DNA from: Candidatus Saccharimonadota bacterium
GTDB lineage: Bacteria; Patescibacteriota; Gracilibacteria; BD1-5; UBA6164
NCBI GenBank assembly: GCA_965227835.1
Contig: OZ245768.1
Span: forward strand, 420,001-452,000
Direction: 5' to 3'
DNA length: 32,000 bases
Under the pieces are notes generated by a model. It saw only the letters and a program-made list of their open reading frames with translations, did no database searches and had not been told where the DNA came from. Shown here piece after piece: positions 3,101 to 32,000 of the stretch. Position 1 is the first letter of the stretch. The number at the start of each line of letters is the position of its first letter. Position numbers and translations under genes: made by a program.

Positions 3101-3124
3101 CAAAAAGATAAAATTTTTACAAGG

Positions 3125-3228
3125 ACAAATGGTAATCCTGTCTGAAACGAGCTAATTATCTTTATAATAACAATAAAACAGTGTTTCAGATAAGACTGAG
3201 CAAATGGCTAAAGCTATCTGTTAAAGAT
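3125..3228. repeat. intergenic structured repeat, family B (inverted copy)
   Basis: Inverted repeat CTGTCTGAAAC ... GTTTCAGATAAG plus a GGCTAAAGC module. The reverse complement gctcagtcttatctgaaac matches gctcagtcttgtcggaaac at 15921-15940. Confidence 0.6.
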
Positions 3229-3266
3229 TAGTTTTTCTGCAGAATTTTAATTTTGCATAAGTACCT

Positions 3267-3377
3267 TTAATAAATTTCTCCCAAGGTTTCTTTCATTTCT
3301 GCATATCTTAAATCTTTCCTAGATTGTATTTTTCTAAATTCTTTACCCTGATTTTTTACTTCTTTTTTAGTTGGCAT
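3267..3377 (-). CDS. possible small basic protein (36 aa)
   Basis: ATG at complement 3375-3377, stop TAA at 3267-3269. Translation MPTKKEVKNQGKEFRKIQSRKDLRYAEMKETLGEIY. No Shine-Dalgarno and no homology recognised. Confidence 0.25.
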   Translation of the reverse strand: MPTKKEVKNQGKEFRKIQSRKDLRYAEMKETLGEIY

Positions 3378-3398
3378 AAAATTTTGATTAAAATAATA

Positions 3399-3433
3399 AT
3401 ACAACTTAATTTTAACATAAGTTGTATTTTTTT
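3399..3433. terminator. bidirectional hairpin terminator downstream of the FemAB-like gene
   Basis: Perfect 10-bp stem ATACAACTTA / TAAGTTGTAT with T6 on the plus side and an A/T-rich tract on the minus side. Confidence 0.6.
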
Positions 3434-3494
3434 GTCAAAAATATGTTCTGTTTTGAGGAAGTAATTAATTCTAAAATCTTTCAACTTTCTTTAA

Positions 3495-4547
3495 TTATTC
3501 AGGTTTTTTGTAATAATATCATCTCTTCTTTCTTCTCATACTTTCTATAATCCAATTAAACCAATATTTACTGGATATAGGTAAATCTTGAGTATGGAGT
3601 AAACTATAATCATAACCTCAAAATTTTCTTTTGAATTTTGTAACTCAAGATAGAGGATGTTTTTTGTTATCATCAGGTGAAATTCACCAAAAATTATATA
3701 GTTTACAACCTCTTTCTTTTGCATCTTTTATAGCTTCCCATTGACACAAGTAATTCGGGGAAAATTTATGATTTATTATCTCACTTGTAGCTATATAATA
3801 AACACAAGTCTTTCAAAAAGATATAGTCATAAGTATTGACTCTGTTTTTCATTCAAAACTGGTTGATATAGTATTTATATTATCTCAAAATAAATCATAT
3901 AAATAGTTTATAAAATCACTTGAAAAGGGATGATAACCTACTTTTTTTGAATGTCTTATATGCATATTTGTAAGAATTTCTATTTGTTTTTTAGTGTTTC
4001 ATTTTACTATAGAAACTCACTGTTTTATAGCTCTGTTTATATAATATCTATCTTTTTTCTTTATATTTTTCATCAACTCATCTACACTTTTTGATAAATC
4101 AAGTAAGTGAGTATCTTCTGCATGTTCATGCATAGGAGCATTTATAAAACCTAAATTTTTGAATTTATTTTTATTTTCTACCAAGTTTTTCTCTGTAGAA
4201 TTAATCCTTATAAAATCAAATTTATTATTTCTAGCATAGTTTTTTAAATCTATTATAACTTCTTTTAAAACATCAAAGAAATCTCATTTTATAAGAGGTC
4301 AATGAGGGATAAATAAATAAGATCATCTTTTTGCTCTTATACATATTACCTGCATAACTCATATTAAGCTATTATTTCATTTTTTTGACTCTTTTTCATA
4401 TATTCAATATCTTATAATATCTTTTTTTAATTTTTTTTGAACCTCTCACCATTCCCAAGATTGAAGAAAACTATAAAATTCAAAATCAGATTTTATAATA
4501 AAACTGTTCCAAATATTTTTTTTTGTTATTTCTTTAAGCTTATACAT
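3495..4547 (-). CDS. FemAB-family peptidoglycan aminoacyl/peptidyl transferase (FemX-like)
   Basis: 351 codons open on the minus strand with TGA as sense. N-terminus FLQSWEWGEVQKK. C-terminus YYIATSEIINHKFSPNYLCQWEAIKDAKERGCKLYNFWGISPDDNKKHPLSGVTKFKRKFGG, typical of the FemAB family. Confidence 0.85.
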
Positions 4548-4555
4548 ATTTTTTG

Positions 4556-5830
4556 CTAAAAATTATTTATCAAATTTACAACCCTGTCCAAATCATTTTT
4601 ATTTATTAGTTTATGGCTAGGTAGTGTTAAAATTCTTTCACTTATATTTTCTGCTATTTTACACTTTCATTTTTTATAAAATGCTTTCTTTAAATCTATT
4701 CAGGAAGGAACAATGTTTTGTCCACTCCAGCTTGTTCAAAATATTATTTTATTTTTTCTTCATAATTCTATCAATCTATCTTTTTCTTTTTTTGATTTTA
4801 AAAGTATAGGAAATCTAAATCAGTTGTAGTTTTTTAAATCTTCAAAAACTATTTTCACTTTTGAGTTTTTGATGTTTTTCAAATAATATCATGCATTTTT
4901 TAGTCTTTTTTTAGTGTAGTATTCTAGTTTATCAAATTCTTTTATTCATAGATATGCCAAGGAGTTTGGCAGAGATAAATTAAAATTTGTATCCATAAAC
5001 TTTTTCTCATTTTCACTTAATATTTCTGTTATAATATTTAGTTTTCTTGATGTAAAAATAATTAGTTTTCATAAAGAAAAAAAGTCATAAAATTTATATG
5101 ATAAATATCAAATTATATTGTAAAATAAGTTTCTTATAATTAAAATCTTTGTAGGCATTTGTAGTGTATTTCTTATTCATTGTAGCTTGGAGAAATACTT
5201 TTTATTTTTCACTACAAGAAATCATCAACCAATACTTGATATTACTTTGTCTCTTCAGCTAGAAAAAACTAAGAAATCTCATTCTTGTTTTTCTTTTGAT
5301 AATACTAAACCATGTGCTAAGTCTTCTATAATTATTATTCCCCTTTTTTTAGCTTCTTTTATTATTTTTTCATAATCTCTATGTTTTTTTCAAAAGCTAT
5401 TTTGTAATATAATTACTTTTGTATTTTTATTTATATTTTTTATTAGTTTTTCTAAATCAAAACTTAGGCTGTCTCTTTCTATATCACTATAAACTATTTT
5501 TGCCCTAGATTTAATTACAGAATTACAAACAACACTACAAGTATAAGAATTTACTATAACTTCATCACTTTTTTCAATTCATATAATTTTTAAAGCATGG
5601 TATATAGCAGACCTAGCATTATAAAAACTTAAAATTTTCTTTTTTTTACTTTCTTTTTTATAAGAACTATCTATATTCAAAAGTCTTTTTTCAAGTTTTT
5701 TAATTTCTTCTCATTTTTCTATTTTTTTTATGTATATACTCAATAAAAACAAACTATCGAGCATTTGAGAAAAGCTTATTGTGGAGAAAAAATCAGATAT
5801 TATAGTTTTTTTTAATATAAATTTTGACAT
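4556..5830 (-). CDS. DegT/DnrJ/EryC1/StrS-family PLP-dependent aminotransferase-like protein
   Basis: 425 codons, stop TAG at 4556-4558, 8 nt upstream of the FemAB-like start. Motifs SFYNARSAIYHALK, VIVNSYTCSVV and FSSGRDKVISSIGGGFL (candidate PLP lysine). Confidence 0.75.
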
Positions 5831-5855
5831 TTGCATTATAATGATTATTATATGA

Positions 5856-5927
5856 TAGTTGATATTTCAACAAATAGTATAAGCTTATCTCTATAATTTG
5901 AAAAATTATTTTTTCTTTTTATATGGG
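5856..5927 (+). promoter_or_regulatory. conserved 72-nt upstream block with TATAAT (5892-5897), copy 1
   Basis: 100 percent identical to 6325-6396. The TATAAT lies 76 nt before the ATG. No clear -35 element. Confidence 0.4.
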
Positions 5928-5972
5928 GTTTAGTTTTATTTTAATAAATTCTATTAAACAAAGGAGAATGTT

Positions 5973-6179
5973 ATGGCTTATAGGTTAGAGAATAATGTAG
6001 AAGCTATTAAGATATTTCTATCTAAATTAAATGATAGCAATATTCATGAACTACAAGCGAAAGGACTTAAAAAGTTTTATGATGAACTTATAAATGCTGG
6101 TTTCGGTCATCATGATGCAATAAATATAGTTTCTCGTCAAAATCCAAATTTAACCACTATAGCTAAAGTAAATATTTAA
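5973..6179 (+). CDS. small hypothetical protein (68 aa), paralog 1
   Basis: AGGAG 8 nt upstream of the ATG. No TGA codons. C-terminal KKFYDELINAGFGHHDAINIV is shared with paralog 2. Followed by a terminator. Confidence 0.7.
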   Translation: MAYRLENNVEAIKIFLSKLNDSNIHELQAKGLKKFYDELINAGFGHHDAINIVSRQNPNLTTIAKVNI

Positions 6180-6188
6180 GCTAATTTT

Positions 6189-6224
6189 AAAACACCATTT
6201 GGGATTAATCCCAAATGGTGTTTT
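6189..6224 (+). terminator. rho-independent terminator of paralog 1
   Basis: AAAACACCATTTGGGA-TTAA-TCCCAAATGGTGTTTT, a perfect long stem with a T-run. Confidence 0.85.
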
Positions 6225-6324
6225 CTTAAGGAGATACTGAAAAATTAACATCTATGAAAAAATCAGATATTATAGTTTTTTTTAATATAAATTTTGACAT
6301 TTAATTTTTATTTATTATTGTAGA

Positions 6325-6396
6325 ATAGTTGATATTTCAACAAATAGTATAAGCTTATCTCTATAATTTGAAAAATTATTTTTTCTTTTTATATGG
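6325..6396 (+). promoter_or_regulatory. conserved 72-nt upstream block with TATAAT (6361-6366), copy 2
   Basis: Identical to 5856-5927. Confidence 0.4.
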
Positions 6397-6878: not shown

Positions 6879-8522
6879 TTACTTTCTAAATTTATCAAAA
6901 TATATCCTTGATCATCTTCATTCAAAAAGTATTGTGGAATTTTTGATATTATCCATATTTTCCAATATATTATCTTCTTTAAATCAAGCTTCTAAAATTC
7001 AATCTAGAAAATATTTTCAATAATTCACCCCGCAATAAAATATTTGGTTTACTTCTTTTTTCTTTGCTATTTTTTGTCATAGTTCAAAGTGAATTTTTTT
7101 AGAGTATTTTCACAATTCTAATACATCATCCATAACTAAAACTTTATTTCATTTATATGTCCCAAGTATGTTTATTCAAGCTAAAAGTCATTCAATGGGT
7201 AGATTATAAGAATCATTTATTAAGATGTTACTTTTGTTTTTAAATACTCAAAGTCTATTTTCTGGAAGAGATATATTTTTCAAATATTTTTTAAGGTCAT
7301 TTTGTTTAATTCAAATATCCAAACAAAAAGCTATTACTCAAGTTAGGTTTAATATATTATGTTCTCACACTAAGCTACATTTAAAAGTGTAGTTTTTGTT
7401 TTTATAATGTATTTTAAATTCACTAAATCAGTCATTGGTACCCAATATTTCAGATTGTATATCAAGATTTTTGTCTTTCATTCAATATCTCACCAAATTT
7501 ATTTTTTTCTCATTTATTATAGATTCCTTTATGGCTTTTTTAATATTTTTATCATCTCCATTTACATATAGTGTTCATTTGTTTTTCATAACAGATTCAG
7601 ATATTTCACTTTTACCTTTTATTATATTTTGCTGTGTTCAAAAAATTCATATGTGTTGATTTCAAATAGCTGTCAGGAAACCATGTTTATGATTAACTAT
7701 TTTTCAAAGCAAACTTATTTCTCATATTTTATATGCTCATATTTCAGCTACAAAAAATTTGTATTTGTCGTTTAGTTTATTTATCACTATTTTTGATACT
7801 CATAATTCTGTATTTATGTTTTCGGGTGTTTTTAATGTTTTTGAGTCTTGTTCTAAAATACATGATAACATTTCTTTTATACTTGATTTTCAATAGCTTC
7901 AAGTTATTGCTACCTTTAAGGTATTTTTTGTATTTAGGGATTTTGAAATGGCTTTATTTATAATTTTGTTTTTACTATAATTCACCAAAGGCAAGCTTAT
8001 AAAGTTGTATAAAAATATTATAAGAGGAAGAGCTATAAATATAGTTAATATATATATGTATGTGTAGTTGAAAGAGTTTAAATAGTAAAACATATATAGG
8101 TCTATACCTTGAATTATTATAAATATTGATAAAAGAAAAGTTAATCTAGAACTAAAAACTGGTTTTAAAATGTTTTTCCTGATTATTTTTCATATAACAA
8201 ATATGTTTAGTATCACTAAATACCAAAAAAACATATTATAAAATGTCCCCCAAAATACTATATAGTATGGTGTTTTTGATAAGTATATTAAATATATAGA
8301 TATAGAGTAGAGTAAAAGTATTATATCAATTACAAAAAATACATTAAAAATAGCTTTTTTTCATTGTTTTGTCCATAAATATTCCCTAAATCTATCCCAC
8401 CTATATTCTTTTAATTGTATTGTATAAAGCCAAAAAAGGAGTTTGTAAGCCAAGGGTAAAAATGCTAATATAAAAATTATAGTGTAATCAAGAGGTGTTC
8501 AAATAATAAGTTCTTTTTCCAT
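6879..8522 (-). CDS. murF: UDP-MurNAc-tripeptide--D-Ala-D-Ala ligase (MurF-like) with a polytopic membrane N-terminal domain
   Basis: 548 codons. The first ~190 aa are hydrophobic (about 5 predicted helices). Then comes the Mur-ligase P-loop VAITGSYGKSS (both Gly are TGA, 7890-7892 and 7899-7901). Further motifs: TPENINTELGV, AEIGAYKIGEI, TAIGNQHIGIFG, DSYNLPIEG. Track ORF 7899..8093 is an in-frame fragment. Confidence 0.8.
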
Positions 8523-8612
8523 GCTTTTTTAATATTTAGATATAAAATTTCTTAAATGTTTTCCAAAATATATTTAATTTCTTTGTTTTTTCAAAATACA
8601 GCTTTTATTATC

Positions 8613-9422
8613 TTACATATTCAATAAAAAGTGTTTTACTAATACTTCTGGATCTTTTAGATGTATGGAGTGGGTTTTGTTTTTTAAAACTATAATTTTT
8701 GATTTTTTGATATTATCTTTCATAAAATATCAATCTCTTAGGGGAGTATATTTGTCTTTTTCTCACCATATAATCAAAGTCTCTATATTTATCTTTTTTA
8801 TTTCTTCTTTTAAATCACAAGCTATCATATTTAAATAAGTCTTTTTTAAGTTTGGATTATCAATTGCTTCTAAATAATCATAATTTCAAATTAATCTGTA
8901 AAATATTTTTTTTGTTTTTTCTAAAACAGATATTTTTCTGTTTTTTAAAAAGTTTATTTTATTAAAAGTTTTTGCCGTGATATTTAATATTTTTCTTTTC
9001 ATATTCCTTTTTATATCATTTCTAATTCAAGCAGAATTGTTTAAAACTAATTTATTTATTTTTATTTTTTTTCTGTTTGCTAATTTTATAGCAATAGCTC
9101 ATCAATTACTATGCCCCAATATAATTAATTTATTAAAATTTATATCTTTATAAATTCTTTTTAAGTTTTCTACAAATTCTTCAAATATGATAGCATATTC
9201 ATCTATGTTATATATTTTTTCACATTTTGTATTTTTTGAGGCTCCTGGTATATCAGGAATAAAGACATTATATCAAGATTTTTGTAATATTTTAGAAAAT
9301 TCATTCCAACTATCAGATGATCATCTCCAACCGTGAAGTATTAATATACTTTGATTTTTATTGCTTTTAAATATATTATAACTTATATCTTGTTTGTTTA
9401 TTTTTATTTCTTTTTTTTGCAT
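8613..9422 (-). CDS. alpha/beta-fold hydrolase
   Basis: 270 codons. LILHGWRGSSDSW and the nucleophile elbow LGHSNGGAIA (GG encoded by TGA TGA). C-terminal KTHSIHL fits a catalytic His. Confidence 0.8.
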
Positions 9423-9486
9423 AAGTTTTTAATCTATTTATTAATTTTTTGAATTATATCCATATTTATATCATTTCAATAAATAT

Positions 9487-10050
9487 ATGTGAGTTTATAT
9501 ACTACCTACAAATACTTGCTTTTGAATAGCTTGTCCAGCAAATGACTTGGAGAGTTATAAAAAAATATATGAAATAAAAAAAAGAAGCCTTGATAAGGCT
9601 CTTGCTTTTTTATGTCCCAGTTTTGATTATTTAAAAGATAATACATATTTAACTGATTCTCAAATAAATTTCCTGAATCAGTATAAAAGACCTTTTACTA
9701 TACTTATAGATATTGAAAGTATAAAAGATGAGAATTTGAAAAATATAGTTAAAAATTTACCAAACTATCATATTTATAGAAAACTAGGTTTTAGAGTATG
9801 TCATAATTTTATGCAAATTAGGCTTGTTCAAAAAAATTGAATACTTTTTTTGACTAGTGCAAACAAATCTTGAAAACCTGAAATTTTTAATACCAGGGAA
9901 ATAAGAAGAGAATTTAAAAAAGAAATAGATGATTATGAGATAAGTGTTTTTGCTCATCTGGATTATGAAATAAAATCATCTCAAAAATCAAGTGATGTAT
10001 TTCAATTTATTTGAAATAGTTTGGATTTTGAATTTTTGAGAAGGGTTTAA
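9487..10050 (+). CDS. tsaC: L-threonylcarbamoyladenylate synthase, YrdC/TsaC domain protein
   Basis: 188 codons. YILPTNTCFGIAC (PTDTxYG-like), KKRSLDKALAFLC and LTSANKSGKPE (SANxSG motif). Track ORF 9547..9840 is an in-frame fragment. The start is uncertain; ATG 9487 is the first in frame after the stop at 9442. Confidence 0.8.
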
Positions 10051-13947: not shown

Positions 13948-14135
13948 CAGTTGAATACTATATCTTCTTCTTCATTAATTGCACTTCATTTCTTACTTTG
14001 TGTTCCCTTGTAGTATTATAGTTGAACTCTTGCATTATTTTCCTACCTAAACTCTACATCGTAAGCTAACACATATTTAAAATCTCTTCAATTGTCTTCA
14101 TAAAACTTGAAGAAATAATATCAACTAAGATTATA

Positions 14136-15638
14136 TCATATTTGATTTATTAATTTTTCTATATCTGTGGAGCTTATATCATAAAACCTTAATTTTGATA
14201 TATATTTCTTGCTAGAATTTTTTGTAAAACTAAAATCTTTAACACTATAAATAGGTAATATTCTTGAAAAATTATCTAAAGTTATTTTTTCATTGTAATC
14301 TATTCTGTGCTCTTTTTTAAATTCTATTAATTTAAGTAGTTTATAGTTTTTGCCTTTGTACTTTCCCGACTTAACAATTTCATTTAGATTATATAAAATC
14401 ATTTCTTCTCTATTTTCCAAGCTCATATTTCTTACAGATTCTGGTAAATCTTCTTCATCATATCTATTTGTATAAGATAAATCTTTTGGTAGATTGAAAT
14501 ATTTATAATCTCTAAATTGCTTATCATCTATTGCTCAAACAGGATCATCAAAAGTAGGATCATAATATCTATCTCAAACTTTAACCCAAGCATGTCATAC
14601 TTCAGGGAAATCATCAGCATCTATTACATATCATCTAATTACTTCTACATCATTTATTCAAGCAAACATAAGCATATAAACCATCAATTTTGCATATCAT
14701 TCACATACTCAGTCTTTGTTTTTAAATGTTTCTATCCCAGAAAAAATTTTATAATTATCAAAATCAATAGCTTTAGAATAAGAGATGTTTTTAAGTATGT
14801 AGTTATATATATTTTGTATTTTTGATTTTGTACTTAGGTTATTTGTTATATTTTTTGTTTTTTTCTTTAATTTTTCAAAATAATAATCATAGGATGAAAC
14901 AGGAGAGTTTCTTATATCATCAAGAACTTCTTCCAAAAAATAATATTTATTTTCTAAATCTTTCACTAAATCATCTTTTATTAGCCTTATCTTTTTTGGA
15001 TTTTTTACAAATCATATTTCATCTTTTTTTGTAACAAAAAGTAAATCTGTTTCGAGGTTAACTCAATTATAATCTAAATCTCTTTTGCTTACATTTACTC
15101 CTTTTGGAAAAAAACTATAGCTTTTAAAACTATATGCTTTCCAAACTCCATCTTCTAAAAATATATGTTTTTTGGTATAACTTATATTTTTAAAATATTT
15201 AGAATAACTATAACTTTCAATTATTTTTTTTCTTCTTTCTTTTTCAAGAATATATTTTTGCTTGTATATTTCTGATTTTTCACTTTCTGCCAGTGTATCT
15301 TCCAATATATCTTCTTTTTCTTCACTGTTATAATCTATATTATCTTTTTTTATTTCTTCTTCTATTTGTTTTATCTTTTCTTTGCTTAGATAAGAAACTT
15401 GATTTAATACATCAAGAAATTTTTCATTATTTTTATATTTCTTGTTTGTTTTAAAAGATTCAAATTTTTTATTTAAATTTAAAAATATATTTTTCTGAGA
15501 CTCTAGATCATTTTCTTTTTGAATTTTTATCACTAAATTATCAAATAGTTTTTGTACTTTTGGACTTATATAAACTCAAAAACTACTATTTGAAAAAAGA
15601 AAAAATATTGAAATGAATAAGAAGATTTTTTTTATCAT
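14136..15638 (-). CDS. secreted transglutaminase-like cysteine protease-domain protein
   Basis: 501 codons; track ORFs 14136..14426, 14709..14966 and 15063..15533 are in-frame fragments. Signal peptide MIKKIFLFISIFFLFSNSSFG. Cys-His-Asp core GVCEGYAKLMVYML...EVGHAWVKVGDRYYDPTFDDP. Confidence 0.8.
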
Positions 15639-19997: not shown

Positions 19998-20441
19998 TTA
20001 TAAAACATCATCACTTATTTTTTCATATTCAAAAACTCATTCTCAACCAAAAAATCTTTCAATTTCTTCTTTAGCAGATTTTTCGCTATCACTAGCATGT
20101 ATTATATTACCATCAATTGTTAATCCAAAATCTCATCTAATAGAACCTGGAAGAGCTTCTTCTGGATTTGTAGCTCCACTAAGAGTTCTTACAGTACTTA
20201 TTGAATTCATACCAGATACAGCTATCGCTACCACTGGTGTTCTTTGCATGTATTTTAATATAGAAGGAAAAAAAGGTTTATCAGTAAGAAAATCATAATG
20301 TTCCTCTATTATTTCTTTGTTTAGTTTCATCATTTTCATACCTGAAATTTTTAATCATTTATTTTCAAGTCTAGTTATAATTTGACCTATTATACTTCTT
20401 TCAATAGTATCTGGTTTTAGTAAAACTAATGTGGTTTCCAT
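19998..20441 (-). CDS. ndk: nucleoside diphosphate kinase
   Basis: 148 codons. METTLVLLKPD, GSIRGDFG (G is TGA), NIIHASDS. Track ORF 20133..20339 is an in-frame fragment. Confidence 0.9.
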
Positions 20442-20693
20442 TTATTTTTTTGTTAATATATTAAAATCAAGGCAATTATATATATTACTTTTTAAATGCA
20501 AGAAAATAGGGCTTTATTTTCCTATTTTCTTTTCAAATATGTTGGATTCTAAGTATGTAATGAAAGTATGGAACATATAAATTTTAAATATAACTTTTTC
20601 ACAGGAAAAATGAAAAAAATTAAATTTTATGAAAAAGCAACTGTTTGAGTCCCAATCTTTGATTGGTCGAGTTTTGCGAAAGAATAAAATTTA

Positions 20694-20701
20694 TATTTTT
20701 T
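20694..20701. repeat. 8-bp target-site duplication TATTTTTT (left)
   Basis: The identical octamer directly abuts the other IS end at 21789-21796. Confidence 0.7.
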
Positions 20702-21788
20702 GGGCTAATACCAAAAATGTGTGCTATTTTTGCTTAAGATTTCTATTATAAATCCAAAGAGATATGAAAGAAATAATCCTATGTTTTTTTAATCATCTGT
20801 GAGAATAAATATGATTAGATAAAACTCCATTATATCATTCTAAATCATTAGAACTTCTTTTGATATTTTTATCTTTAATATAATGAAACATATATGGAAG
20901 AGCATTTTTTATGTGTTTTTTCGCCTGTCTGAGTCTTCGATGAGTATACCAAGTTCTTATTCAATTTGAACTTTTCTCTTTTAAAAAATCAAAGTATTTT
21001 CTCTCCCAACTCTGGAAATATTCAGTAAAAATTTTCTCATTTTCAAAGTTTTTAAAATTCATTATTTTCTGTAAATCTTTTCAACAATCACTTTGAGGTT
21101 TTTTAGATATATAATTTGTTATTTGTCTGTGAATATGTGTTAAACATCTCTGAAATTTTGCATTAGGATATATTTCTCCTATTGCTTTTTTTATTTGTTT
21201 GCTTCAATCTACAGTAAAACTCAAAATATTATATTTAAATTCATATTTAAGAATTCTTAAGTCTTCTAGTATATCCTCATATCTTTCTCAATTATAAAAA
21301 CCAAAACGAATAACTTTTTTTTGTATATATTCATAGTAAATTATAAGACATATATTTTTTGAAATCCATATCCCATCTATCATTACATAACTTATATTTT
21401 TAAACACAAGATCTATTTGAAATATTTTGTTTGAATCAAGATGACTTTGAATATTTTTAAGTATATCTTTTTTGTTTTTTAATTTCTGTTTTCAAAGTTG
21501 TCTACATGAATATCATTCTTCAATCCAATCTTGAAATATTTTTTCTCAATATATTCTTGGGGTTTTTCTTGTTGAGATAACGAAACAAAAATTACATTTT
21601 TTACATTTATATTTTTGTTTTCACTGACTATTCTTTCAGTTCTTTTTTATATAAATACAACGACATTTGGGACAGTTTTTTTTGCATAATAAAATTTTAT
21701 TTTTTAAACTACATAAATATATCTTATTTCTTCCTTATTTAATGCAAAAAATCTATACCTTTTTAGCACACATTTTTGGTATTAGCCC
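20702..21788 (-). mobile_element. insertion sequence (1087 bp) with perfect 25-bp terminal inverted repeats
   Basis: GGGCTAATACCAAAAATGTGTGCTA at 20702-20726 is the exact reverse complement of 21764-21788. Carries a single DDE transposase gene and is flanked by the 8-bp direct repeat TATTTTTT. Confidence 0.9.
20724..21687 (-). CDS. DDE transposase with N-terminal CxxC...CxxC zinc ribbon (IS256/Mutator-like core; family uncertain); start displaced by one frame at an A8 run
   Basis: 321-codon frame begins CKKNCPKCRCIYIKKNGKNSQGKQKYKCKKCNFCF. Candidate catalytic residues: YVMIDGIW, FTVDGSKQIKKAIGEIYPNAKFQRCLTHIHRQI, SSNDLEGYNG. Many in-frame TGA. Stop TAG lies inside the left IR. The only ATG (21685-21687) is one frame off, across the A8 run (T8 at 21676-21683). 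Confidence 0.65.
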
Positions 21789-21796
21789 TATTTTTT
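21789..21796. repeat. 8-bp target-site duplication TATTTTTT (right)
   Basis: Matches 20694-20701. Confidence 0.7.
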
Positions 21797-21846
21797 TCAT
21801 TTTTCTAATATATTGAAAGAAATTATATATCTAAATTTTAGTTAAA

Positions 21847-24800
21847 CTATTTTGTGAAAAGGGGAGGAGGTGATATCTGCACTTCAGGATTATATTTTAT
21901 TACTACAGGATATTGTGATTCTTCTTCACTAGATCCAAAATTATTTTCTTCAATTCATCTTCTTAAATAATTTAAATCATATTTTTGTGCCTCATCAAGA
22001 GTACAATCAAAACTATTTTCACTATATTTATAAAATGGACAAACAGGAGGATTTTTTCTAGATCATCATATCGTATTTTCAGAGAATAGTGATCAATGTA
22101 TATATAGTTGATTTTTTAGTACTTCATATGTTCAACCATTGCTTGGAGAAATTTCTCACCATATATCATTATAACTTATAGCTGATTTATCTGCATAAAG
22201 TGCTGCTCCTATTTTTCTCACTTCAGGATCTATATATATATTTCATCAATTATTATTATCGTCTTTTAATACTATAATTCATCAAATAGTTAAATTTCAG
22301 GTTATATATGCATTTGCTCATAGTATTACTATAGTTTTTTCTCAACAGTTACTACAAGAATTTATTGTATGAATTTTTGAATTTGCATTTCTATAATCAT
22401 AATATATTACTTTTCAATTAATCAAACTTGTTCATGTAGGGCTTCAAGATACATTTTTTATTACTTCAAAAGCATTTTTTCTTATATTTCATCTTAGTTC
22501 TCACTTATCTATATCTCAAGCTATATTTTTTATATCTTGTTCTTGATTTTCTACCAAATCTTTTTGCTTTGATTCATCTATATTAGTAAGACCATATATT
22601 TTTATAGTATTTGAATTTTGTCCTTGATTTCATCATATTGTTCAAGCTTTATAGATTACAGTTTTATTTGTATCTATTACATATTCTAAATAAGCATTTA
22701 CAACTATATCTTTTGCTTGATCTATAAATCAATCTTTATCTGGATCTAAAGTGAAAAGGGTATCAAAATTCATCTCAGATGTTTTAAATTCAGAGGAATT
22801 ATTATAAAAGACTTTTTTTCATCATTTATTAAATGTGTATTCTGTTCAACTATCTATACTTCAAGTTCAATTAAAGTTTTCATAGTTAGTATCTGTTCAA
22901 GTTTGTTCTAAAGATATTTTATTAATACTGGTTGTTTTACTAGTTGTTTTTATAACTTGTACACTTCAAGTTTGGGTTACTCATTCTATAAATCAGTTAT
23001 CTTTTTGATTTCATCTAAATTCTATTTCATATGCAGGAGAAAAATTAAATTTTATGGGGTTCTCTATTAAAGGTTTATTATATATATCTCATATATTTCA
23101 ATTTACATCTAAAAATATTTGATTTATTGTGAAATTATTTCAATTTATAGTTGGAGCATAAACTTTGAAGTTTAAAGGATATTGTCAGTCTGATGATTCA
23201 AAATTGTTAAATTCTTTGTCTTTATTATCTCATAAGCTAAATAAATTACTATAGATATTAGAACTTCAAGTATTTGCAAGAATAGCATTACCTAAATTAT
23301 TATATTGATTTAAATAGAGAGAATTAGATGTATTAAACTTTAAATCAATAGTTCTTGATATTCAGGAAGCAGTTACTATTTGGTTTCAATAATTATCTTC
23401 TAAAGATGTTCATAACTCATAAGGAATTCAATCTGCTATTTTTCATACAGTTAAAATATTTGATGTTATTGTGCTTGCTATATTTTCTGTATTTGCATAA
23501 ACATTATAATTGTATGTTGCTACATTGTTTCAACTACTACAATTTCAGGCTTCATCACAGATTTTATCTATGGTTAGGGTGTATTGCCTAGAACCGTCTG
23601 TTTCTCTGTCTCTATCTACATCTTGCATATTTAAGTCTTCACTAAAACTCCAAGAATTTACTGTTCCTGTGCTTGAAGAGTTTTTATCATTATAATTTTC
23701 AAAACTATAATCTATTGATACAATAGGAGATCATCAGTTTATTCAAACTTCAAAACTTACATTTTCACTACTATTTGCTAAAATATTTGAATCATCAGTA
23801 TGAGATAAATTTTTTATGTCATCTATCGTTGGAGCTGTAGTATCAATATTGGTTATCACATAAGAAACACTTGTCTCATTTCAGGCATTATCTTTTACGG
23901 TTATACTTGAACTAGTATTTTCTGTAAAAGTTTTAGAGTATGTATTTCAACTTATAGACCATCAACTGATATTATACATATCGCATCAACTTCATCATTC
24001 ATCACTACAAGTTATACTTACAGTTACTCATGAATTAGTCCAAATATCTGGAGAATAAGAAACATCTCATGAAGGTAATATTTTATCAATATTATCTACA
24101 TCATAAGTGGCAGTCGTTTCATTTCAAACATTGTCTATTAAAGTTATTGTTCAAGTAGTATTTTCTGTAAAAGTTTTAGAGTATATATTTCCACTTATAG
24201 TCCATCAAGTATTAGTATATGTCATATCACATCAACTTCATCAAGTATCACTACAAGTTATATTTACCGTTACTCATGAATTAGTCCAAATATCTGGAGA
24301 ATAAGAAGTAGACCATGTGGGACCTGTGATATCAATATTGGCTACACTATAGCTAGCAGTTCAAATATTTCAGGCAACATCTTCTACAGTTATACTTGAA
24401 ATAGTATTTTCTGTAAAAGTTTTAGAGTATATATTTCCACTTATAGTCCATCAAGTATTAGTATATGTCATATCACATCAACTTCATCAAGTATCACTAC
24501 AAGTTATATTTACCGTTACTCATGAATTAGTCCAAATATCTGGAGAATAAGAAGTAGATCATGAAGGATTTTCTCAATCCCAATATAAACAATACATGGT
24601 TCAGCTTTCAGCTACATCATCTTCATTATCTCAATGGGCTTCTGTTGTACTAGAATCATTGTTTTTTGCCACAGCACCTTTTGTTGCATCATCTCAATCT
24701 CAATCACCATCTCATGGACATATAGTTCATTTGTTTGGTCAAGTAGGACTTTCTCCTTGATTGCTTAATTCAGCTCCTCCAGGATTAGAATACGAAACTG

Positions 24801-24888
24801 CATGATTACCATACCAATTTCAAAAAGTTTGATTTGATGAAAACCAAATAAAAATTGATAAAATTATGAAAAATATTTGTTTTCTCAT
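21847..24888 (-). CDS. large secreted/surface protein with three tandem ~82-aa Ig-like repeats
   Basis: 1014 codons (length divisible by 3; N-terminus checked codon by codon). Signal peptide MRKQIFFIILSIFIWFSSNQTFG. Acidic GDGDGDGDD linker. Repeats SYSPDIWTNSGVTVNITCSDTGGSGCDMTYTNTGWTISGNIYSKTFTENT. C-terminal region rich in Asn/Gly/Thr. Stop TAG at 21847-21849. Confidence 0.8.
23815..24557. repeat. three tandem 246-bp coding repeats inside the surface-protein gene
   Basis: 24158-24311 and 24404-24557 are identical by eye over ~154 nt. The third unit (about 23815-24065) is clearly more diverged. Confidence 0.85.
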
Positions 24889-24916
24889 TTTTGTTTTTGT
24901 TTTTGTTTTTGTTTTT
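24888..24916. repeat. hexanucleotide microsatellite (TTTTTG)4-5 abutting the surface-protein start codon
   Basis: G at 24893, 24899, 24905 and 24911. On the coding strand this reads AAAAAC x4 and then AAAAATG. Confidence 0.9.
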
Positions 24917-24950
24917 ATATAAAATACATATATATTTTCTCATAATTTAC

Positions 24951-24990
24951 AAAAAAAAGCAAAATATTTACTCTTTATTTTGCTTTTTTT
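24951..24990. terminator. bidirectional terminator between the 631-aa gene and the surface-protein promoter
   Basis: A8-GCAAAATA-loop-TATTTTGC-T7. The T-run overlaps the stop codon of the upstream gene. Confidence 0.75.
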
Positions 24991-26884
24991 AGAGTTTCCA
25001 GTTCATTCAGATAGAAATACTATCATTTTGATTTATTCAGTTATCTGTCCTTTCAATTCAAGCACTTACAGAAAGTGTATCAAATATATTTCATGTCATT
25101 CCTATTTCCCTTGTTATTTCATTTAATAAAAAAGGATTATCTGAATTATCCAAATTTTCATATGAAAACGATATCTGTCCTTTTTGATTTCATAAATTAG
25201 CTTCAAATCAGGTTTTTTCGTATCATAATCATTTTTCACCACTTATGTTACTAGAAGCTCTCATGTTTCAATCATCATATGTCAAACCTAAATCAATAGA
25301 TTTTTTTTCAAATTCTCTTGTTCAACCATCATACCCAACTCTAATATTTTTTCGTGAAATATCAGCTCAATATCATAGATTTATATTTCAAACTAGATTT
25401 TGTGAAATAGATTGTTCCAAATTTAATGAGGCTCCATAATTTAAAGTATGGTCATTTGAATTATTATTTTTTTCAGATTCAGTTCGTTGAAATTGATGTA
25501 CTGCTCATAATCATATATTTGTATTTCAATTATCAAATAGTTGATTATAATATTTAAAATCAAATCAAATATTATTAAATTCTCTTGTTTTTCAATTTTC
25601 CCACTCAAAATAATTTTTTGAAAGTTTTAATCAAACTCAGTAAGTTCAAAATGTATCATTACTAACCGTTTTTTCTAAATATGTTCAATAAGAATCATAA
25701 TTTGCATAGTCTAAACTATTTGTTCTATTAAAAAAAACTCATGTTTTCATTCCACTATTTGCATAACTTAAATCAATACTTTTTGAGCTTTTTGTATCAA
25801 GTTCTCAATCTATGTTAAATCAATGCTTATATTCTAATCATTCTCTGCTTAGTTCCCTAGAATATTCTAGACTATCTCCTGTATTAATTGAAGATGTAGT
25901 TGATTCAAATAACTCTTCTAAATCAGTCTGAATAAAACCCAATAATTTTCATCTAGCATCTCAAACTTCTTCTCTAATTTTAATTGATCATTTTTCTGCT
26001 AGATATCTAGCTTTTAATTCTTTGGGATCACTTGATTCGTAATAGTTTCAATAATCTATAAAAAAAAATTTACCATCCTGATTTCTTCACCGAGTTATTG
26101 AATGATTTCCTCAAGAAGTTGTACTTATAATTCAAGTATTAAATCAAACAGATTCCAAAAACTTAGCTACTTCGCTATGATGATGTCTACATACTCCTGC
26201 TACTCAAAAGTTTATATATGCGTCCCACATATCTTGCGATGAAACATCTCAAGAGTTACCCATTTGATCACTATCATATCAAACATTACCCATATATATA
26301 CTCATAAACATAGCTAGTTCTATTTTATTTTGTTCTGATTGATTTTCATAATTTTCTCTTAATATTTCAAGTGGACTTCTATCTGTTTGCCCAGCTTCAA
26401 ATAAAGAATTTAGAAAATTTAGTTGTTCATCAAAGAATCTGTTATTTTCAGATAATTTTTCCTGCCCTCCTTCTACACCACATATAAAATCTAAACTATC
26501 AGTTGTTCTTTCAATATAACAAGTTCTATTTGATTGAGAATTTTCATCATATAATTTATAAAAAACTCTAATAGCATCTTGTATACTTCAATCTCACTCT
26601 GAAGAATTATCATATCTATCTATTAAAACATCTTCTTTTTGGGCAGTTGAGCTTCTATTTACTAGATTTATATTAATGTATATATCATTTCTTGTATTTT
26701 CTACTAAATTATTAACATCTCTATATGTTTCTAAATTTAAAGACTCCAAATCTCATTTTGTATTCTCTACCAATTCTTGAGAATCTTCTGATTCAATATA
26801 TTCTTCTATTCCATTTGTATTAAATCATTGTGTTTCATTTGTATTTTGATTTATATTTTCTGTTATATTATTTTCTCTTTCCAT
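24989..26884 (-). CDS. transglutaminase-like Cys-His-Asp domain protein with beta-strand-rich C-terminal half
   Basis: 632 codons. No signal peptide (MERENNITENINQNTNE). Core GVAGVCRHHHSEVAKFLESVGFNTGIISTTSGGNHSITRGRNQDGKFFFIDYG. C-terminus shows alternating-hydrophobic segments (IRVGYDG, LGLTYDD, ISFSYEN, LSVSAGIE, ISIGMNWKL). Confidence 0.7.
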
Positions 26885-26889
26885 AATCT

Positions 26890-27243
26890 TTATATGTTAT
26901 TAATGATATTTTCTAATTGTTCCTCTGATTGTTTATTTTCTAAGTCTTCTATTTCTCTTATATTTTTAATACCTTTAAATATTTCTCCTGTTTTTTTAAT
27001 ATTCATATCCTCTATACCTTTTGTTAATCCACTTTTAAACCTATATCATATTTTTCATAATCATTTTTTGTAATTATATTTTATAATACCTAAATTTTTT
27101 TGTTCTTCTTCAAATATTTCTATCATTTTATTTATACCTTTTTTCTCATTTTTTATTATATTAAAAAGACTTATCTTTTCTTCAGGATTCAAAGATAAGC
27201 TTTTATCTATAAGTGTTGATAAATAATAAATGTTACTAAACAT
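26890..27243 (-). CDS. hypothetical protein (117 aa)
   Basis: Track ORF 27061..27243 continues through TGA codons to the TAA at 26890-26892, 5 nt before the next gene start. Lys/Glu/Ile-rich. No family recognised. Confidence 0.6.
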
Positions 27244-27274
27244 TTTTTAAAATAATTAAAATAAAAATTGATTT

Positions 27275-30208
27275 TTATAATCTAGGAAGCTCTTTTATTG
27301 CCTTCCTCAATAATCTATTATCTCATTTTTTTACAGTTGCCTGTGAAACACTAAATTTTTTTCTTCTTATTGTTATTTCATCTTCATTTGTAAAATCTAA
27401 AATAATATCATTTTTACTACTCCATGATTTTGAATCATCTATTACATATGTTCAATCATCTTCTACTTCTATATCATCCCAATCTATACCTTCTAATCAT
27501 TTTGTAGCTTCTCTTATATTGTGAATATCTTCTTTTTGTTGAATTTCTTTTTCTATTTGCAGTATAATCTCATCTTGCATATCATCACTTTTATTTTTAA
27601 GAGCTCTTCTCAAAATAGCTTCTTTTTCCACTAAATTTTCTATACTTAATGTAGTATTCAAACTATCTATAACAGGATTTACTATTCCACCAAATTTATT
27701 TATTTTTCTTTCCCAAACCATTTGTTCAGTTCTACTTCATCATCTATCATAATCTTTTGCATCTTTAAGTTCATTCTCCATTATACCTAGTCTATTTTGA
27801 GATTCTTCTAATCTTTCAAGTAAACTATCTATTCTTACTAAATAATAACTTAAAGGTTTAATTTTTTCAGGATCTGTTTCTATTGCTACATTTATTATTC
27901 ATTTTTCATCTCTTATAGTTGTTAAGTCTTTATCTATTATTATATCATTTGTATCCCATGATCTATCAATTATATAATTACCCTGCTCATCTCTTTCTAA
28001 ATCTTCAGCATCTATTCATAATCAATCAAGTGGTATGCTTCTTAGTGTCATATCTCTATTTTCTTCCTGTGTTCTTATTTCTTCTCTAACTTCTTCCTCA
28101 CCTTTTTTTTCTAAAAGAACTTTTAACTGAAATATATAATTTTCTATTTTTCAAATATCTGTATTTAATTTTATTTCTTCAAGTTTTCCTTGAATTTGGC
28201 TATTTTCTTTTTTATGTTCAGCTTTAGCTACAAGATCTAAAAGTGTATCAAGTTTTTGTACTGCTGACGATAGATTTTCTTTTGTTACAGTTAATTTTCA
28301 GATTTTTCATTCTTCATCTTGGATTGTATAATTATTTCCTGAAGTATCTAATACTAAATCATTGTTTGGTCATTGTCTGTCTATTAGATATTTTCAATTT
28401 CATAAATCTTCTATATCTCTATCTATTCAGTCTATATAAAATATATTTGAAGATATATCCTCAGAGTTTGTCGGTTCTAAATCAACTGTTATTACTTCTT
28501 GTATAGGTAAAAATTTCATTGAAGATGCCATTACAACCTCTCTTTCTATTTCTCATATCGTAGTTTGTTCTACGATTTCTCTAATTTCTGCAATTTCTAA
28601 AACTGGTGTTTCTGGTAAATCTTCTTGAGGTTCTGTTTCTTCTTGAGGTTCTGTTTCTCTAATCAATTGTGATAAATTTAGTTTTGGTAGTAAAATATTG
28701 TCTCATACCCATAGGTTATCTCACATTATACCATCTTGTCATTCTCAACCTGCTTTTTTAGTGTCTTTCAAAAGCCTTGTTTTCATTGCTCCTTCTTCTT
28801 GATGATTTATAACTTGGTTTATAGCTCTTGCTATTTCTCTTTTTCATTTATTGGTATTATCATCTATACCATATTGTTTTTTTACTATTTTCCATAGACT
28901 ATCACCTGATTTTACTATATATGAACTATCTATTGGTTCTATTTCAGAGTATTGTGTATCTGGTTCAATGGAGTTTGTTACTGAATCAACTCTAGCTCTA
29001 TTTGCTGCTTCTAGATTAGCTTGTGTATTAGCATCTGTAATAGCATTTTTATAAGCCTTTAGAGCAGTTTGAAAATTTGTCATAGCAGTTTCAATTTGAG
29101 TTTTCAAACCATTTACTTCATTTATTGCAGTTAGTGAATCTATATTTGTATCTAATAAACTTTGTAGAGCTGTTTTTGAATTTTCATAATTTTGTAACTC
29201 TTGACTATCTTCATCTAAAGAAGCTCAATCTACAAGTGACATTACATTTTCAGTATCTATTAAATCTTTCCCTCCTTGTATTTTTGAAGTTAGCTCTGTT
29301 TTTGCTTGTTCTAAAGCTCTTTCTTGTTTTTCTGTATATTCTTGATTAGCTTTTGTAATGGCTTTATTATAGGCTATTAAAGTTGAATTTAATTTTTCAG
29401 CAAATTTTCTTAGTGTTTGAAAGTTTTCAGGATTTTTTTCGGTGGTTGAAATTATAAAATTATTATAAGTTTGTAAAGCATTTTCATAAGCAGTTTTTTC
29501 TGCTTCTGGTTCTATGGCTCAATCTGTAATAGTTTCGGTTACTGGGAATTGACTAACTTGATCTACAACTTTATTCCAAGCTTTCTCGCTATAATTTTCT
29601 TCTAAATTTTCTGTTATTTTTCATATATTAGAACCATCTTCAACTTTATTTCAAATTCTATGATTTGTTATTCATACTAAATTATCTAGCTTTTCATTTG
29701 CTTCATCATCATCTAGTTTTTGCTCTACATTTTCCACCATTCATGGTCAAACAGGGATTGAAATTTCATCTTCTAATTTTAAAGCACTATCCATTTCAGT
29801 TCTCATTTTTTCTAATAAATCTACAACTCACTCTTCAATAGTATCTCTATCATTATCAAAACTATTCATAGTATCTACAAGTTCTTCTATTTGAAAATCT
29901 ATTAATCATTGGTCTTCAAAATTTTGTAACTGTTCATCACTTCAATCTATTTCAACATCTTTTCACAGCCATTTTTTTATTATCTCTTTTTTACTTGTTC
30001 ACCATTCAAGTCAGGAATCATCTTCTATTCTTTCATCTAAAAGAGTTTTTATTTCTTTTAATTTTTCCTTTATTTCAGTATTTGCTTCCAGATTTCAAAT
30101 TTCTATATTGTCTGATTCTCAAGAATTATTGAGTCACCCTGGATTTTCTAAGCTATTTTTTAATAGACTTTTAAAGACATTAATCTCTGTTTTTATTAAA
30201 TTAAACAT
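27275..30208 (-). CDS. large acidic coiled-coil protein with a LysM-like peptidoglycan-binding segment
   Basis: 978 codons; track ORFs 27497..27721 and 28844..29107 are in frame with the ATG at 30206-30208. No signal peptide or TM helix. YIVKSGDSLWKIVKKQYGIDDN ... GDNLWVGDNILLP resembles a LysM domain with an insertion. Long Glu/Lys/Asn-rich helical stretches. Confidence 0.75.
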
Positions 30209-30361
30209 AATTTTTATTTTAAAATATTATTATTTTTATAATTTTAACATAAATGTATGTAATAAGTCAAAAATTTACTTAGATTTTTTTGATGTTCTCC
30301 AAATCTTGCTTTTTAGAAAAAATTAATATGATTTTATAAAATATAAAAAATTCATATTTTA

Positions 30362-32000
30362 ATGACTAATTTGGAAAAAATATTACAAGAAAACTTTTGA
30401 CTGGAAAGTTTTAGAGAATGACAAAAAGAAATTTGTGAGAGTGTTATTTCTGGGAAAGACACTCTTGTTTTTATGCCTACTTGATGATGAAAATCTCTTA
30501 CTTATCAGCTTCCATGACTTGTACTTGATTGACTGGTTGTAGTAATCTCTCCTCTTATATCACTTATGAAAGATCAAGTTGATAGCCTTACAGAAATATG
30601 AATAAAAGCAAAACTTATAAACTCAACAATAGACTCAAATGACATATCCCTTATTTTATCTGAACTTGAAAACTCTACTTCAAATCCAATAAAATTTTTA
30701 TACATAGCTCCCGAAAGACTTAACTCACCTAAATTTTTAAATGTAATAAACAGATTAAAAGTAGCTTTGGTTGCAATAGATGAAGCTCATTGTATAAGCC
30801 AATGGGGTCATGATTTTAGACCAAGCTATATGAAAATACTTGGTTTTTTAAATAGCTTGAAAACTAAAGATAATTTCCCAACAATAGCTCTCACTGCTAC
30901 TGCTACTAAAAAAGTGAGAAATGACATAATAGAAAGACTTGATATATCATGAGCAAATATCTTTACCAAATGATTTGATAGAAAAAATATAACCATAATT
31001 GTCAGAGAAATATCAGAAAAACAAAAGAAATTTTGAAAGGTTTTAGAAATATTGGATAAAACAAAATGATCAGGGATAATTTATTGTTCTAGTAGAAAAT
31101 CAGTGGATGAGGTATATGAACTTATGCAAGATTATCGTGTAAAAGCTGGAAAATATACATGAGCTATGACCCCAGAACTTAGAGAAGAAATGCAGAATAA
31201 ATTTATGAATTGAGAATACAAAGCGATAATAGCAACTAATGCTTTTTGAATGTGAATTGATAAAAAAGATATAAGGTTTGTAATCCATTTTAATCTTCCT
31301 GGGAGTATAGAAAATTATTATCAAGAAATAGGTAGGTCTTGAAGAGATTGAGAAAATAGTTTTGCTGTAGCTTTAGCTAGTTATTGAGACACAAAAATAC
31401 AAGAGTTTTTTATAGAAAATACTTACCCTTCCAAAGAAGAAGTACTTAAATTATATGATTATTTATATAGAGATTTCAAAATATGACAGTGAACAAATCA
31501 TAGTATATCTATGACTTTACACCAGCTAGCTAGTCATAGCTGAATACAAAATGATATGAGAGTTTGAAATATTATAAAGATACTTGATAAATACAATATA
31601 CTATCTAGATGAGTTAGTGATAGTGATAGGGAAGAGGGATTTAGATGAAAATGACTTGTTTTATTGCAAGAAAAAAGAAATCATAGCCATATACTTATTG
31701 ATTGGAAAAAACAAGATTTATTGAAGGATGAAGCTTATTTTAAACTTGAACAAATAAAAAGATTACTTTTTTATCCAAGTTGTAGAAAAAGATTTATTTT
31801 AGAATATTTTTGAGATGAAGAAGACCTTCAAAGTCTTCCAGAGAATTGTGGAGCATGTGATTTTTGTATTGATAGAAAGAAATTTGAAAAATCTCCTTCA
31901 AAAGAATTAATACCTGTCTCTACATTTGTTTTAATTTTGGAAACCGTAAAAAAATATGATGAAAGGTTTTGACAGGTACTTATTAGAAAAACTCTTGAAT
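30362..32000 (+). CDS. recQ: ATP-dependent DNA helicase RecQ (C-terminus beyond right edge)
   Basis: FREGQKEI. FMPTGGGKS with three consecutive TGA at 30482-30490. [67 protein letters not shown]. Zinc-binding [12 protein letters not shown]...CGACDFC. Track ORF 30767..30952 is an in-frame fragment. Confidence 0.95.

Follow-up and report, generated by a model that had tools for sequence, protein, structure and literature searches.

A recoded four-gene block and its relatives

The window analysed here is a stretch of 32,000 nucleotides (nt) from a Gracilibacteria genome (assembly GCA_965227835.1, contig OZ245768.1, positions 420,001 to 452,000), and our subject is a block of four genes on its minus strand, A, B, C and D (Table 1), which the initial annotation had grouped as one candidate surface or host-interaction module. 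The window has a GC content of about 24% and the region is invisible to standard-code tools: table 11 sees almost no genes, and the longest open reading frame (ORF) overlapping positions 20000-32000 is 87 amino acids (aa) long. When TAA and TAG are taken as the sole stops, ORFs of at least 150 codons cover 30.2 kb of the 32-kb window, compared with 1.5 kb before. UGA codons sit at invariant P-loop glycines of EngA (GRPNVgKS) and RecQ (PTgggKS), and the code of the window is therefore genetic code 25, in which UGA is glycine. The whole window uses this code, a hallmark of Gracilibacteria and Absconditabacteria, and the four ORFs are real, but solely with UGA read as a sense codon. The window proteins and most of their relatives are stored in public protein databases with tryptophan at the UGA positions. 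Such copies lower the sensitivity of profile searches and degrade structure prediction, with a pLDDT of 48 where a homologue in correct translation reaches 83.

Table 1. Features of the four-gene block, with positions in nt of the window unless given as aa
Feature	Position	Strand	Remarks
Gene A	27275-30208	minus	977 aa, ORF under code 25
Gene B	26890-27243	minus	117 aa, ORF under code 25
Gene C	24989-26884	minus	631 aa, ORF under code 25
Gene D	21847-24888	minus	1013 aa, ORF under code 25
C, variable N-terminal region, aa 1-165	26390-26884	minus	acidic/Asn-rich, partly helical, no signal peptide; from family alignment, models and N-termini
C, conserved alpha+beta domain, aa 166-345	25850-26389	minus	C232, H261 and D277; from invariant columns and model
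C, predicted 16-stranded outer-membrane-type beta-barrel, aa 346-631	24992-25849	minus	from the P0141 model and Foldseek
Intrinsic-terminator-like hairpin 3' of C	24952-24990	minus	A-run, 15-bp A/U-rich stem, U-run; dG -12 kcal/mol, z = -2.8
Best sigma-70-like promoter match, upstream of A	30241-30270	minus	TTGACT-18-TAAAAT plus extended -10 TG, 10/12 matches; consensus match only
A, divergent LysM-like segment, aa 430-508	28685-28921	minus	YIVKSGDSLWKI to LWVGDNILLP, insertion of about 35 aa
A, three beta-rich repeats of about 60 aa (aa 583-643, 721-781, 897-957)	27338-28462	minus	G[IL]D..D[IL]E...G.Y.ID....ND...D; from motif search
D, predicted signal peptide	aa 1-23	minus	N-terminal hydrophobic signal-like segment MRKQIFFIILSIFIWFSSNQTFG, followed by NWYG
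D, tandem Ig-like repeats (three of about 82 aa, aa 113-358)	23815-24568	minus	246-nt unit x 2.8; from repeat search
D, (AAAAAC)n tract in the 5' leader, directly before ATG	24888-24916	minus	4 copies; 2 copies in L005 (8755-8775)

Under code 25 the gene boundaries and the gaps of 31 nt (A-B) and 5 nt (B-C) match those of the initial annotation exactly, and its recoded Gracilibacteria/SR1 context, its terminator after C (here a hairpin that a simple terminator scan had missed) and its view that A and C lack signal peptides all held up. No segment of transmembrane (TM)-helix or signal-peptide grade occurs in A, B or C (maximum KD19 of at most 1.04), and in-frame stops block an N-terminal extension of all three ORFs. 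The absence of a named system was likewise borne out: none of the four proteins has an above-threshold match in Pfam, NCBIfam, PHROGs or PADLOC, and sequence searches of the PDB were negative or sub-threshold. A, B and C are probably co-transcribed in this strain, to judge from the short gaps, the position of the best promoter-like site upstream of A and the terminator downstream of C; the total of promoter-like sites in the AT-rich DNA of the window does not exceed that of shuffled sequence. This arrangement of A, B and C is local only.

What the annotation proposed as a module does not hold together in related genomes. The closest relative found is an ENA metagenome contig (L005) with 87-95% nt identity, syntenic from UvrD through D, in which A (81% aa identity) directly adjoins D (75% aa identity). 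An alignment of the junction shows that ~45 nt from the start of B survive in L005, together with a decayed stretch of ~50 nt from the end of C, after which comes the same terminator hairpin. Since L005 keeps remnants of B at its 5' end and of C at its 3' end, B-C was deleted there, with A and D left intact. The A-B-C-D order was thus ancestral to the window strain and L005, with B and C lost together from the latter by an internal deletion; the same remnants led us to reject the idea that B-C is an inserted mobile cassette.

In more distant relatives each part of the block stands in a different setting. A homologue of B lies directly upstream of a homologue of C, on the same strand, in six loci (the window, L001, L002, L003, L008 and L013), with gaps of 2-18 nt and significant homology of B (E 1.4e-17 in L008 and 2.3e-10 in L013). 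A weak B-like ORF lies beside the C homologue of L009, an outlier of the family in standard code, and none was found beside those of L011 and L012. B-C occurs without A and D in L001-L003, L008 and L013, where its flanks differ from locus to locus and include a T2SSF gene, a peptidase U32 gene, a likely endonuclease III gene, PPK2/patatin and a tRNA methyltransferase gene. Gene A has a single homologue, the L005 copy, among 5.8 billion proteins. In two metagenome-assembled genomes (MAGs) of Gracilibacteria, L006 and L007, the D homologues have a prepilin-peptidase-like gene, rpoD and dnaG as neighbours, and A, B and C are missing from their vicinity. Judged from this gene order, the block appears to be three independent units side by side (A; B-C; D) and not one system, and B-C is an autonomous conserved two-gene cassette, the only conserved unit of the block. 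The initial annotation had itself named a lack of conserved co-occurrence in related genomes as the result that would speak against its module, and such co-occurrence of A, B, C and D is lacking: L005 has the block minus B-C, L006 and L007 have D only, and A has one homologue.

Protein C, its partner B and their family

An exhaustive hidden Markov model search of 1.84 billion representative proteins returned 38 representatives of the C family at E<=1e-3. Most of these entries are rich in tryptophan, the UGA codons of recoded genomes having been translated as Trp, and the named ones are listed as "hypothetical protein [Candidatus Gracilibacteria bacterium]". None of 27 members matches any Pfam family at E<=0.01, and neither the profile of the family nor one of its core alone has a meaningful sequence match in the PDB. 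Weak Pfam matches of the family do occur to DUF3996 and Phage_OMP, which resemble outer-membrane proteins (OMPs).

For structure prediction with AF2 we used P0141, a family member correctly translated by NCBI, and an alignment of 35 family sequences. The resulting model (pLDDT 82.8, pTM 0.77, with pLDDT >90 over most of residues 150-606) has a disordered or helical N-terminus, an alpha+beta domain, two short helices and 16 consecutive antiparallel next-neighbour beta-strands; the 16 strands all map onto aa 355-631 of the window C. Foldseek gave 160 matches of this model in the PDB at E<=1e-3, of which the best 50 are without exception outer-membrane barrels, among them the 16-stranded BamA barrel (E about 8e-6, TMt 0.34-0.39, probability 1.00), TonB-dependent transporters, OccK, MtrB and LptD. 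In a viral structure library only porin- or autotransporter-like barrels matched, weakly. The strands have alternating faces, which differ in their content of membrane-compatible residues (72% vs 33%) and in mean KD (0.62 vs -1.52), and C contains much Gly, Asn, Ser and Tyr. The window C itself was modelled from its Gly-to-Trp mistranslated database copy; at a pLDDT of 48.5, the C-terminal half of this model still has about 15 long strands in antiparallel order.

The ends of the protein carry further information. The beta-signal is a C-terminal OMP motif that is read by the machinery for the assembly of beta-barrels (BAM), and nearly all complete C-family members end in Φ-x-F (...Y-K/R-F), for example INYKF, ITYRF, KMNF and KVRF. 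At the other end no member of the family has a hydrophobic N-terminus, so that the Sec signal peptide expected of OMPs is not found. Read from strand order and fold matches rather than from coordinates, the tail of C is predicted to be a 16-stranded outer-membrane-type barrel. Of all that the block contains, this barrel is of the greatest interest; the initial annotation, which had described a Cys-His-Asp core followed by a beta-rich tail and had called for AlphaFold and Foldseek searches, was right about both parts and missed the barrel. That C has this architecture and that the block is not one module are, taken jointly, conclusions in which we have high confidence.

Between the variable N-terminal region and the barrel lies the conserved alpha+beta domain. 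Its residues C232, H261 and D277 do not vary among close homologues, and each is conserved to at least 90% in a set of 27 family members. In the P0141 model a helix begins at the Cys, and the strands that come after it carry the His and the Asp. The same order and placement are found in Transglut_core (PF01841) and BTLCP-type proteases, and hhalign places the triad of C in register with genuine Transglut_core domains (E 0.009, probability 4%). The family differs from Transglut_core proteins in lying below the Pfam threshold, in having no sequence match in the PDB and in its signature around the Cys, which is AGVCRHHHSEVA rather than the canonical G-x-C-x-x-[FY]-[AS]. Three of five close members have sub-threshold Transglut_core matches (best E 0.03) and the window C has none. 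In the fold search with the full-length model, barrel matches crowd out any to this domain. Of the transglutaminase or protease that had been annotated in C, the conserved Cys-His-Asp core therefore stands and the family assignment does not reach significance; from the conserved columns, aa 166-345 are a plausible candidate for a papain/transglutaminase-like catalytic core. An N-terminal PG_binding_1 domain was suspected by eye in P0135, P0136 and P0158; Pfam at E<=0.01 gave no confirmation and we make no claim for it.

Two known types of barrel protein invite comparison. C resembles the type V autotransporters, especially the patatin-like Vd proteins of the PlpD type with their 16-stranded barrel, in having an enzyme domain, short helices and a C-terminal barrel with an aromatic end, and the fold matches of the low-confidence model of the window C include the autotransporter EstA, the NalP translocator domain and the inverse-autotransporter beta-domain of intimin. 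The C family differs from them in lacking a Sec signal peptide, a POTRA domain and a Pfam autotransporter match, in having an obligatory small upstream partner gene and in its producers, whose lineage is described as single-membraned. The features that mark type V proteins are a signal peptide, a passenger, a linker helix inside the pore and either a 12-stranded Va barrel or POTRA with a 16-stranded Vd barrel; C has the order of passenger and barrel and the 16 strands, but neither signal peptide nor POTRA. With the 16-stranded barrels of the Omp85/BamA and porin types C shares strand number, meander topology and the C-terminal Phe motif of its family; it differs from them in its moderate TM-scores, in the absence of sequence similarity, POTRA and signal peptide, and in the fusion of its barrel to an enzyme-like domain.

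The partner B, of 117 aa, is charged, has no hydrophobic segment and begins with the motif MFSdLYYLSKLIDkSLSF..EK; no family in Pfam, NCBIfam, PHROGs or PADLOC matches it. The idea that B is fused into longer members of the C family was rejected, as no such fusion was found. A phage or plasmid origin of B-C was rejected on three negatives: no PHROGs family matches B, C or D, a tblastn search with C as query found nothing in 50,697 phage and 72,556 plasmid records, and a scan of the viral collection with a hand-made glycine-free DNA motif (CRHH.SEVA) gave 0 matches. The genome collection (185,579 GTDB species representatives) and the metagenome collection also gave 0 matches to this motif; the pattern may be too strict, and its scans are weak negatives.

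Three loci at the margins of the family deserve mention. In L013, positions 7599-9982 encode multi-TM proteins of 128 aa and 292 aa, on the same strand and upstream of a divergent B-C pair. The larger of them has a faint Pfam match to T4SS_pilin, the sole hint of an export system beside the cassette, and these neighbours hint at a possible export route for B-C. The most divergent member of the family, P0152, is a protein of 873 aa in standard code from L012 (GCA_024449895.1, JAANSX011060688.1, 8001-10622), and it is the sole member with a segment of TM-helix grade. Its neighbours look archaeal (Topo VI A/B, a KRR1/PNO1-type KH protein and GCD14). By its gene context the C family may reach episymbiotic archaea, or P0152 may be a transfer. 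In L011 (733-6249), from a genome with 65.5% GC, a protein of 1,838 aa shares only the Cys-His-Asp core with the C family (E 1e-6); the genes near it include a phage-integrase fragment and one for a LytR_C protein, and a B-like partner is absent.

Genes A and D and the surrounding genes

Protein A is acidic (D+E 21%) and largely helical, with no Cys and no hydrophobic segment. Between the window and L005 its dN/dS is 0.79, compared with 0.44 for D and 0.04-0.16 for five flanking housekeeping genes. By this measure and its single homologue A appears to be an orphan of the strain lineage that evolves almost neutrally, and the fast evolution of A and D fits surface-exposed or weakly constrained proteins. 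The LysM-like segment that had been annotated in A recurs at one position, aa 420-454, in four libraries (Pfam, NCBIfam PRK11198, a PHROG endolysin family and the LysM of LytE in the PDB); all of these matches are partial and sub-threshold. In Pfam LysM (PF01476) scores 13.5 bits where the cut-off is 20.9, over positions 1-16 only of the unit of about 43 aa, and a beta2-like motif follows about 50 aa downstream of the partial match. At best this segment would be a divergent LysM with an insertion. We take PRK11198, the YgaU/Kbp family, to be cytoplasmic, and a LysM-like segment alone is therefore no proof of an extracellular location of A. The beta-rich repeats of A are spaced by helical segments and match nothing in the libraries, and sequence searches of the PDB with A and D gave nothing meaningful.

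Protein D is, as its sequence indicates, a Sec-secreted surface protein with Ig-like repeats whose family is found across Gracilibacteria; the signal-like N-terminus and the tandem repeats agree with how it had first been described. It has 161 homologues, the full-length ones in Gracilibacteria MAGs, and a beta-rich C-terminal region of about 650 aa that is conserved in and specific to Gracilibacteria. D itself has no Pfam match. Its three tandem repeats align at 27-37% identity with modules of P0058, P0034 and P0028 that are placed by Pfam in DUF7743 or Big_3_2, and in this it resembles the Ig-like repeat surface proteins of these families; it differs from them in its C-terminal region and in its Sec-type signal, where many of them have a prepilin N-terminus. 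Both the number of repeats and the repeat in the 5' leader vary between the window and L005, whose D has about one repeat fewer (944 vs 1013 aa; repeats at about 9100-9616 of L005). Length variation of the (AAAAAC)n tract in the leader could have a phase-variation-like effect on the expression of D. In the D orthologues P0008, P0010 and P0012, and at 24820-24888 of the window, (N/A)WYGNH(A/G)(V/I)S stands right after the predicted cleavage site. This conserved NWYGNH mature N-terminus may be a sorting or anchoring signal.

Two further features lie near D or its homologues. In L006, positions 1612-6359, some 4-8 kb upstream of its D homologue, hold a lookalike of a diversity-generating retroelement, with an RVT_1 reverse transcriptase, bAvd and a prepilin-type/Fib_succ_major candidate target, close to the prepilin-peptidase-like gene. 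In the window an insertion sequence (IS) of 1,087 bp at 20702-21788 separates D from an NDK-like gene. Its terminal inverted repeats are perfect over 25 bp (GGGCTAATACCAAAAATGTGTGCTA), the target duplication is 8 bp long (AAAAAATA), and its transposase ORF, of the Mutator/IS256 type (Pfam Transposase_mut, E 1e-10), has no start codon within the first ~109 codons. In L005 the site is intact and empty, which makes the insertion a recent one, and we rejected the transposase as a part of the block since it belongs to a discrete IS.

The neighbouring genes of the window are ordinary chromosomal ones: CorA, EngA, FemAB, DegT, Mur ligase, UvrD, a secreted Transglut_core protein, an S41 protease, PolA and RecQ. 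The secreted Transglut_core protein (14043-15638, 531 aa) has a signal peptide and a bona fide domain (Pfam E 2e-10) of a family clearly different from C. It is kept in L005 (93% aa identity, dN/dS 0.16) and adjoins the S41/PDZ protease, with which it may form a wall- or surface-modifying pair.

Possible roles of the B-C cassette

As the best explanation of the whole we tentatively favour three independent units, of which B-C would be a cassette for an effector or anchor in the host membrane, although our confidence in it is limited. From the features of C and B we infer the export of C, its target membrane, its enzymatic activity and the role of B. C would be made in the cytoplasm and kept insertion-competent by B, acting as a dedicated chaperone or adaptor, and would leave the cell by a non-Sec route. 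Its barrel would then insert into a bilayer external to the producer. Since the cultured relatives are single-membrane epibionts of diderm prey, the most plausible such bilayer would be a Gram-negative host's outer membrane. There the Cys-His-Asp domain would cleave or cross-link envelope proteins or peptidoglycan peptides, carried or anchored by the barrel in an autotransporter-like layout. That C acts in this way, as an effector or anchor exported without Sec, chaperoned by B and with its barrel in a foreign outer membrane, is the mechanism that we consider likeliest for B-C, if still a doubtful one.

The arrangement of a small charged B upstream of a large signal-less C is like that of chaperone-effector pairs, for which VirE1-VirE2 of the Agrobacterium type IV secretion system (T4SS) and the pairs of type III systems are well known. 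The likeness extends to B and C being conserved and lost together and, in one locus, to T4SS-pilin-like genes alongside. The differences are that B has no sequence similarity to known chaperones and that most B-C loci have no linked secretion system. On the side of the cells, Vampirococcus, an epibiont that uses code 25, has a single membrane by transmission electron microscopy (TEM) and preys on Halochromatium, which has a Gram-negative double membrane (PMC8080830), and the absence of an outer membrane has been proposed for the whole phylum Patescibacteria (PMC12102498).

A more specific form of this proposal, which we consider speculative and rather unlikely, is that the C-family proteins are inter-bacterial "trans-autotransporters", that is, 16-stranded OMP-type barrels made by a single-membrane epibiont and delivered by contact, through a T4SS or otherwise, into the envelope of the host. 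B would keep the signal-less barrel unfolded, the C-terminal Phe beta-signal would be recognised by the BAM of the host, which would build the barrel into the host outer membrane, and the parasite would gain a pore or an anchor, bearing a Cys-His-Asp enzyme with the host envelope as its target. Such a scheme would be parallel to that of mitochondria, which import beta-barrels made in the cytosol.

Several observations weigh against the effector or anchor reading. The barrel was modelled on P0141, which is only about 25% identical to the window C, and the model of the window C comes only from a mistranslated sequence of low confidence. TM-scores to real barrels do not exceed 0.39, the hydrophobic face is only moderately so, with a mean KD of 0.6, and amphipathicity is weak in the first six strands. 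The window C ends in ...MNWKL, with Leu in place of Phe, a degenerate form of the beta-signal-like motif, and the transglutaminase/papain assignment is statistically weak. The link to a T4SS consists of one locus and a faint Pfam match, and usable gene context comes from only about nine loci, mostly on short contigs. L005, the nearest relative, does without B-C, so the cassette is not essential.

Other explanations share some of this evidence. C could instead serve the producer itself, as a porin or as an anchor or tether, seated in a lipid layer that resembles an outer membrane or is of another kind, with B as assembly factor and A, through its LysM-like segment, as wall-binding partner. The fold and the beta-signal-like C-terminus would be at home there, A lies just upstream, relatives have elaborate fibrous cell surfaces (PMC8080830) and OmpM/SlpA-type proteins of other deep lineages are reported to carry a coiled coil and a wall-binding domain besides their barrel. 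We nevertheless consider this unlikely, as the C family has no signal peptide, A is never beside B-C in other loci, a related code-25 lineage shows a single membrane by TEM, and the phylum is proposed to lack an outer membrane. The family is also rare, was not found by the strict motif in any of 185,579 GTDB species representatives, and was deleted in L005, which is unlike a structural component of the envelope. To keep all four genes together as a single surface or host-interaction module, in which A binds peptidoglycan, C cross-links or cleaves and D adheres, is very improbable. A to D are adjacent and co-oriented, in an order that was ancestral to the window strain and L005, A-B-C is tightly spaced between the promoter-like site and a single terminator, and A and D evolve fast, as surface proteins do. 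Against this, the genes do not co-occur beyond a narrow lineage, A and D survive intact where B-C was lost, and D follows the terminator and has a leader of its own; by the test that the initial annotation set itself, the single module is already largely refuted.

The small gene tightly linked to a large one, the patchy distribution and the presence or absence at the level of strains would also suit a toxin/immunity or bacteriocin-like pair, in which C is a pore-forming or proteolytic toxin freed by lysis or by a dedicated exporter and B is its inhibitor or immunity protein. Many toxin domains are of the Cys-His-Asp type, and C has no signal peptide. This interpretation is distinctly unlikely in our view: PADLOC found no system and Pfam no toxin or immunity match, C is conserved over its whole length and is not built of a conserved delivery region and a variable toxin tip, and B precedes C. 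In polymorphic toxin systems the immunity gene usually follows the toxin gene, and to our knowledge single-chain 16-stranded barrels are not a bacteriocin architecture. A last explanation takes C to be a soluble enzyme, intracellular or secreted, and its C-terminal beta domain to be a non-membrane barrel or sandwich, for example one that binds substrate, so that the likeness to OMPs is an artefact of modelling. The missing signal peptide, the modest TM-scores, the weakly amphipathic first strands, the moderately hydrophobic outer face and the lack of an above-threshold sequence match to any OMP family would all agree with it. We find it very unlikely, given that most of the 160 Foldseek matches, and all of the top 50, are outer-membrane barrels, that the 16 strands are long, antiparallel, paired with their neighbours and predicted with pLDDT >90, and that the aromatic C-terminal motif runs through the family, whose composition is typical of OMPs.

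The C family is a rare and unannotated fusion with an OMP-type barrel in an unexpected cellular and genetic context. Our literature searches found no published description of beta-barrel or transglutaminase proteins of this kind in epibionts that belong to the Candidate Phyla Radiation (CPR). The C family makes experimentally concrete the question of how the ultra-small CPR/Patescibacteria epibionts breach the envelope of their hosts and draw nutrients from it, since it joins a putative cysteine enzyme to an outer-membrane-type barrel, has a dedicated small partner and no signal peptide, and is found mainly in Gracilibacteria. If it is true instead that the barrel sits in the envelope of the producer, it would challenge the view that these bacteria have no outer-membrane-like layer and would imply an unexpected complexity of their envelope.

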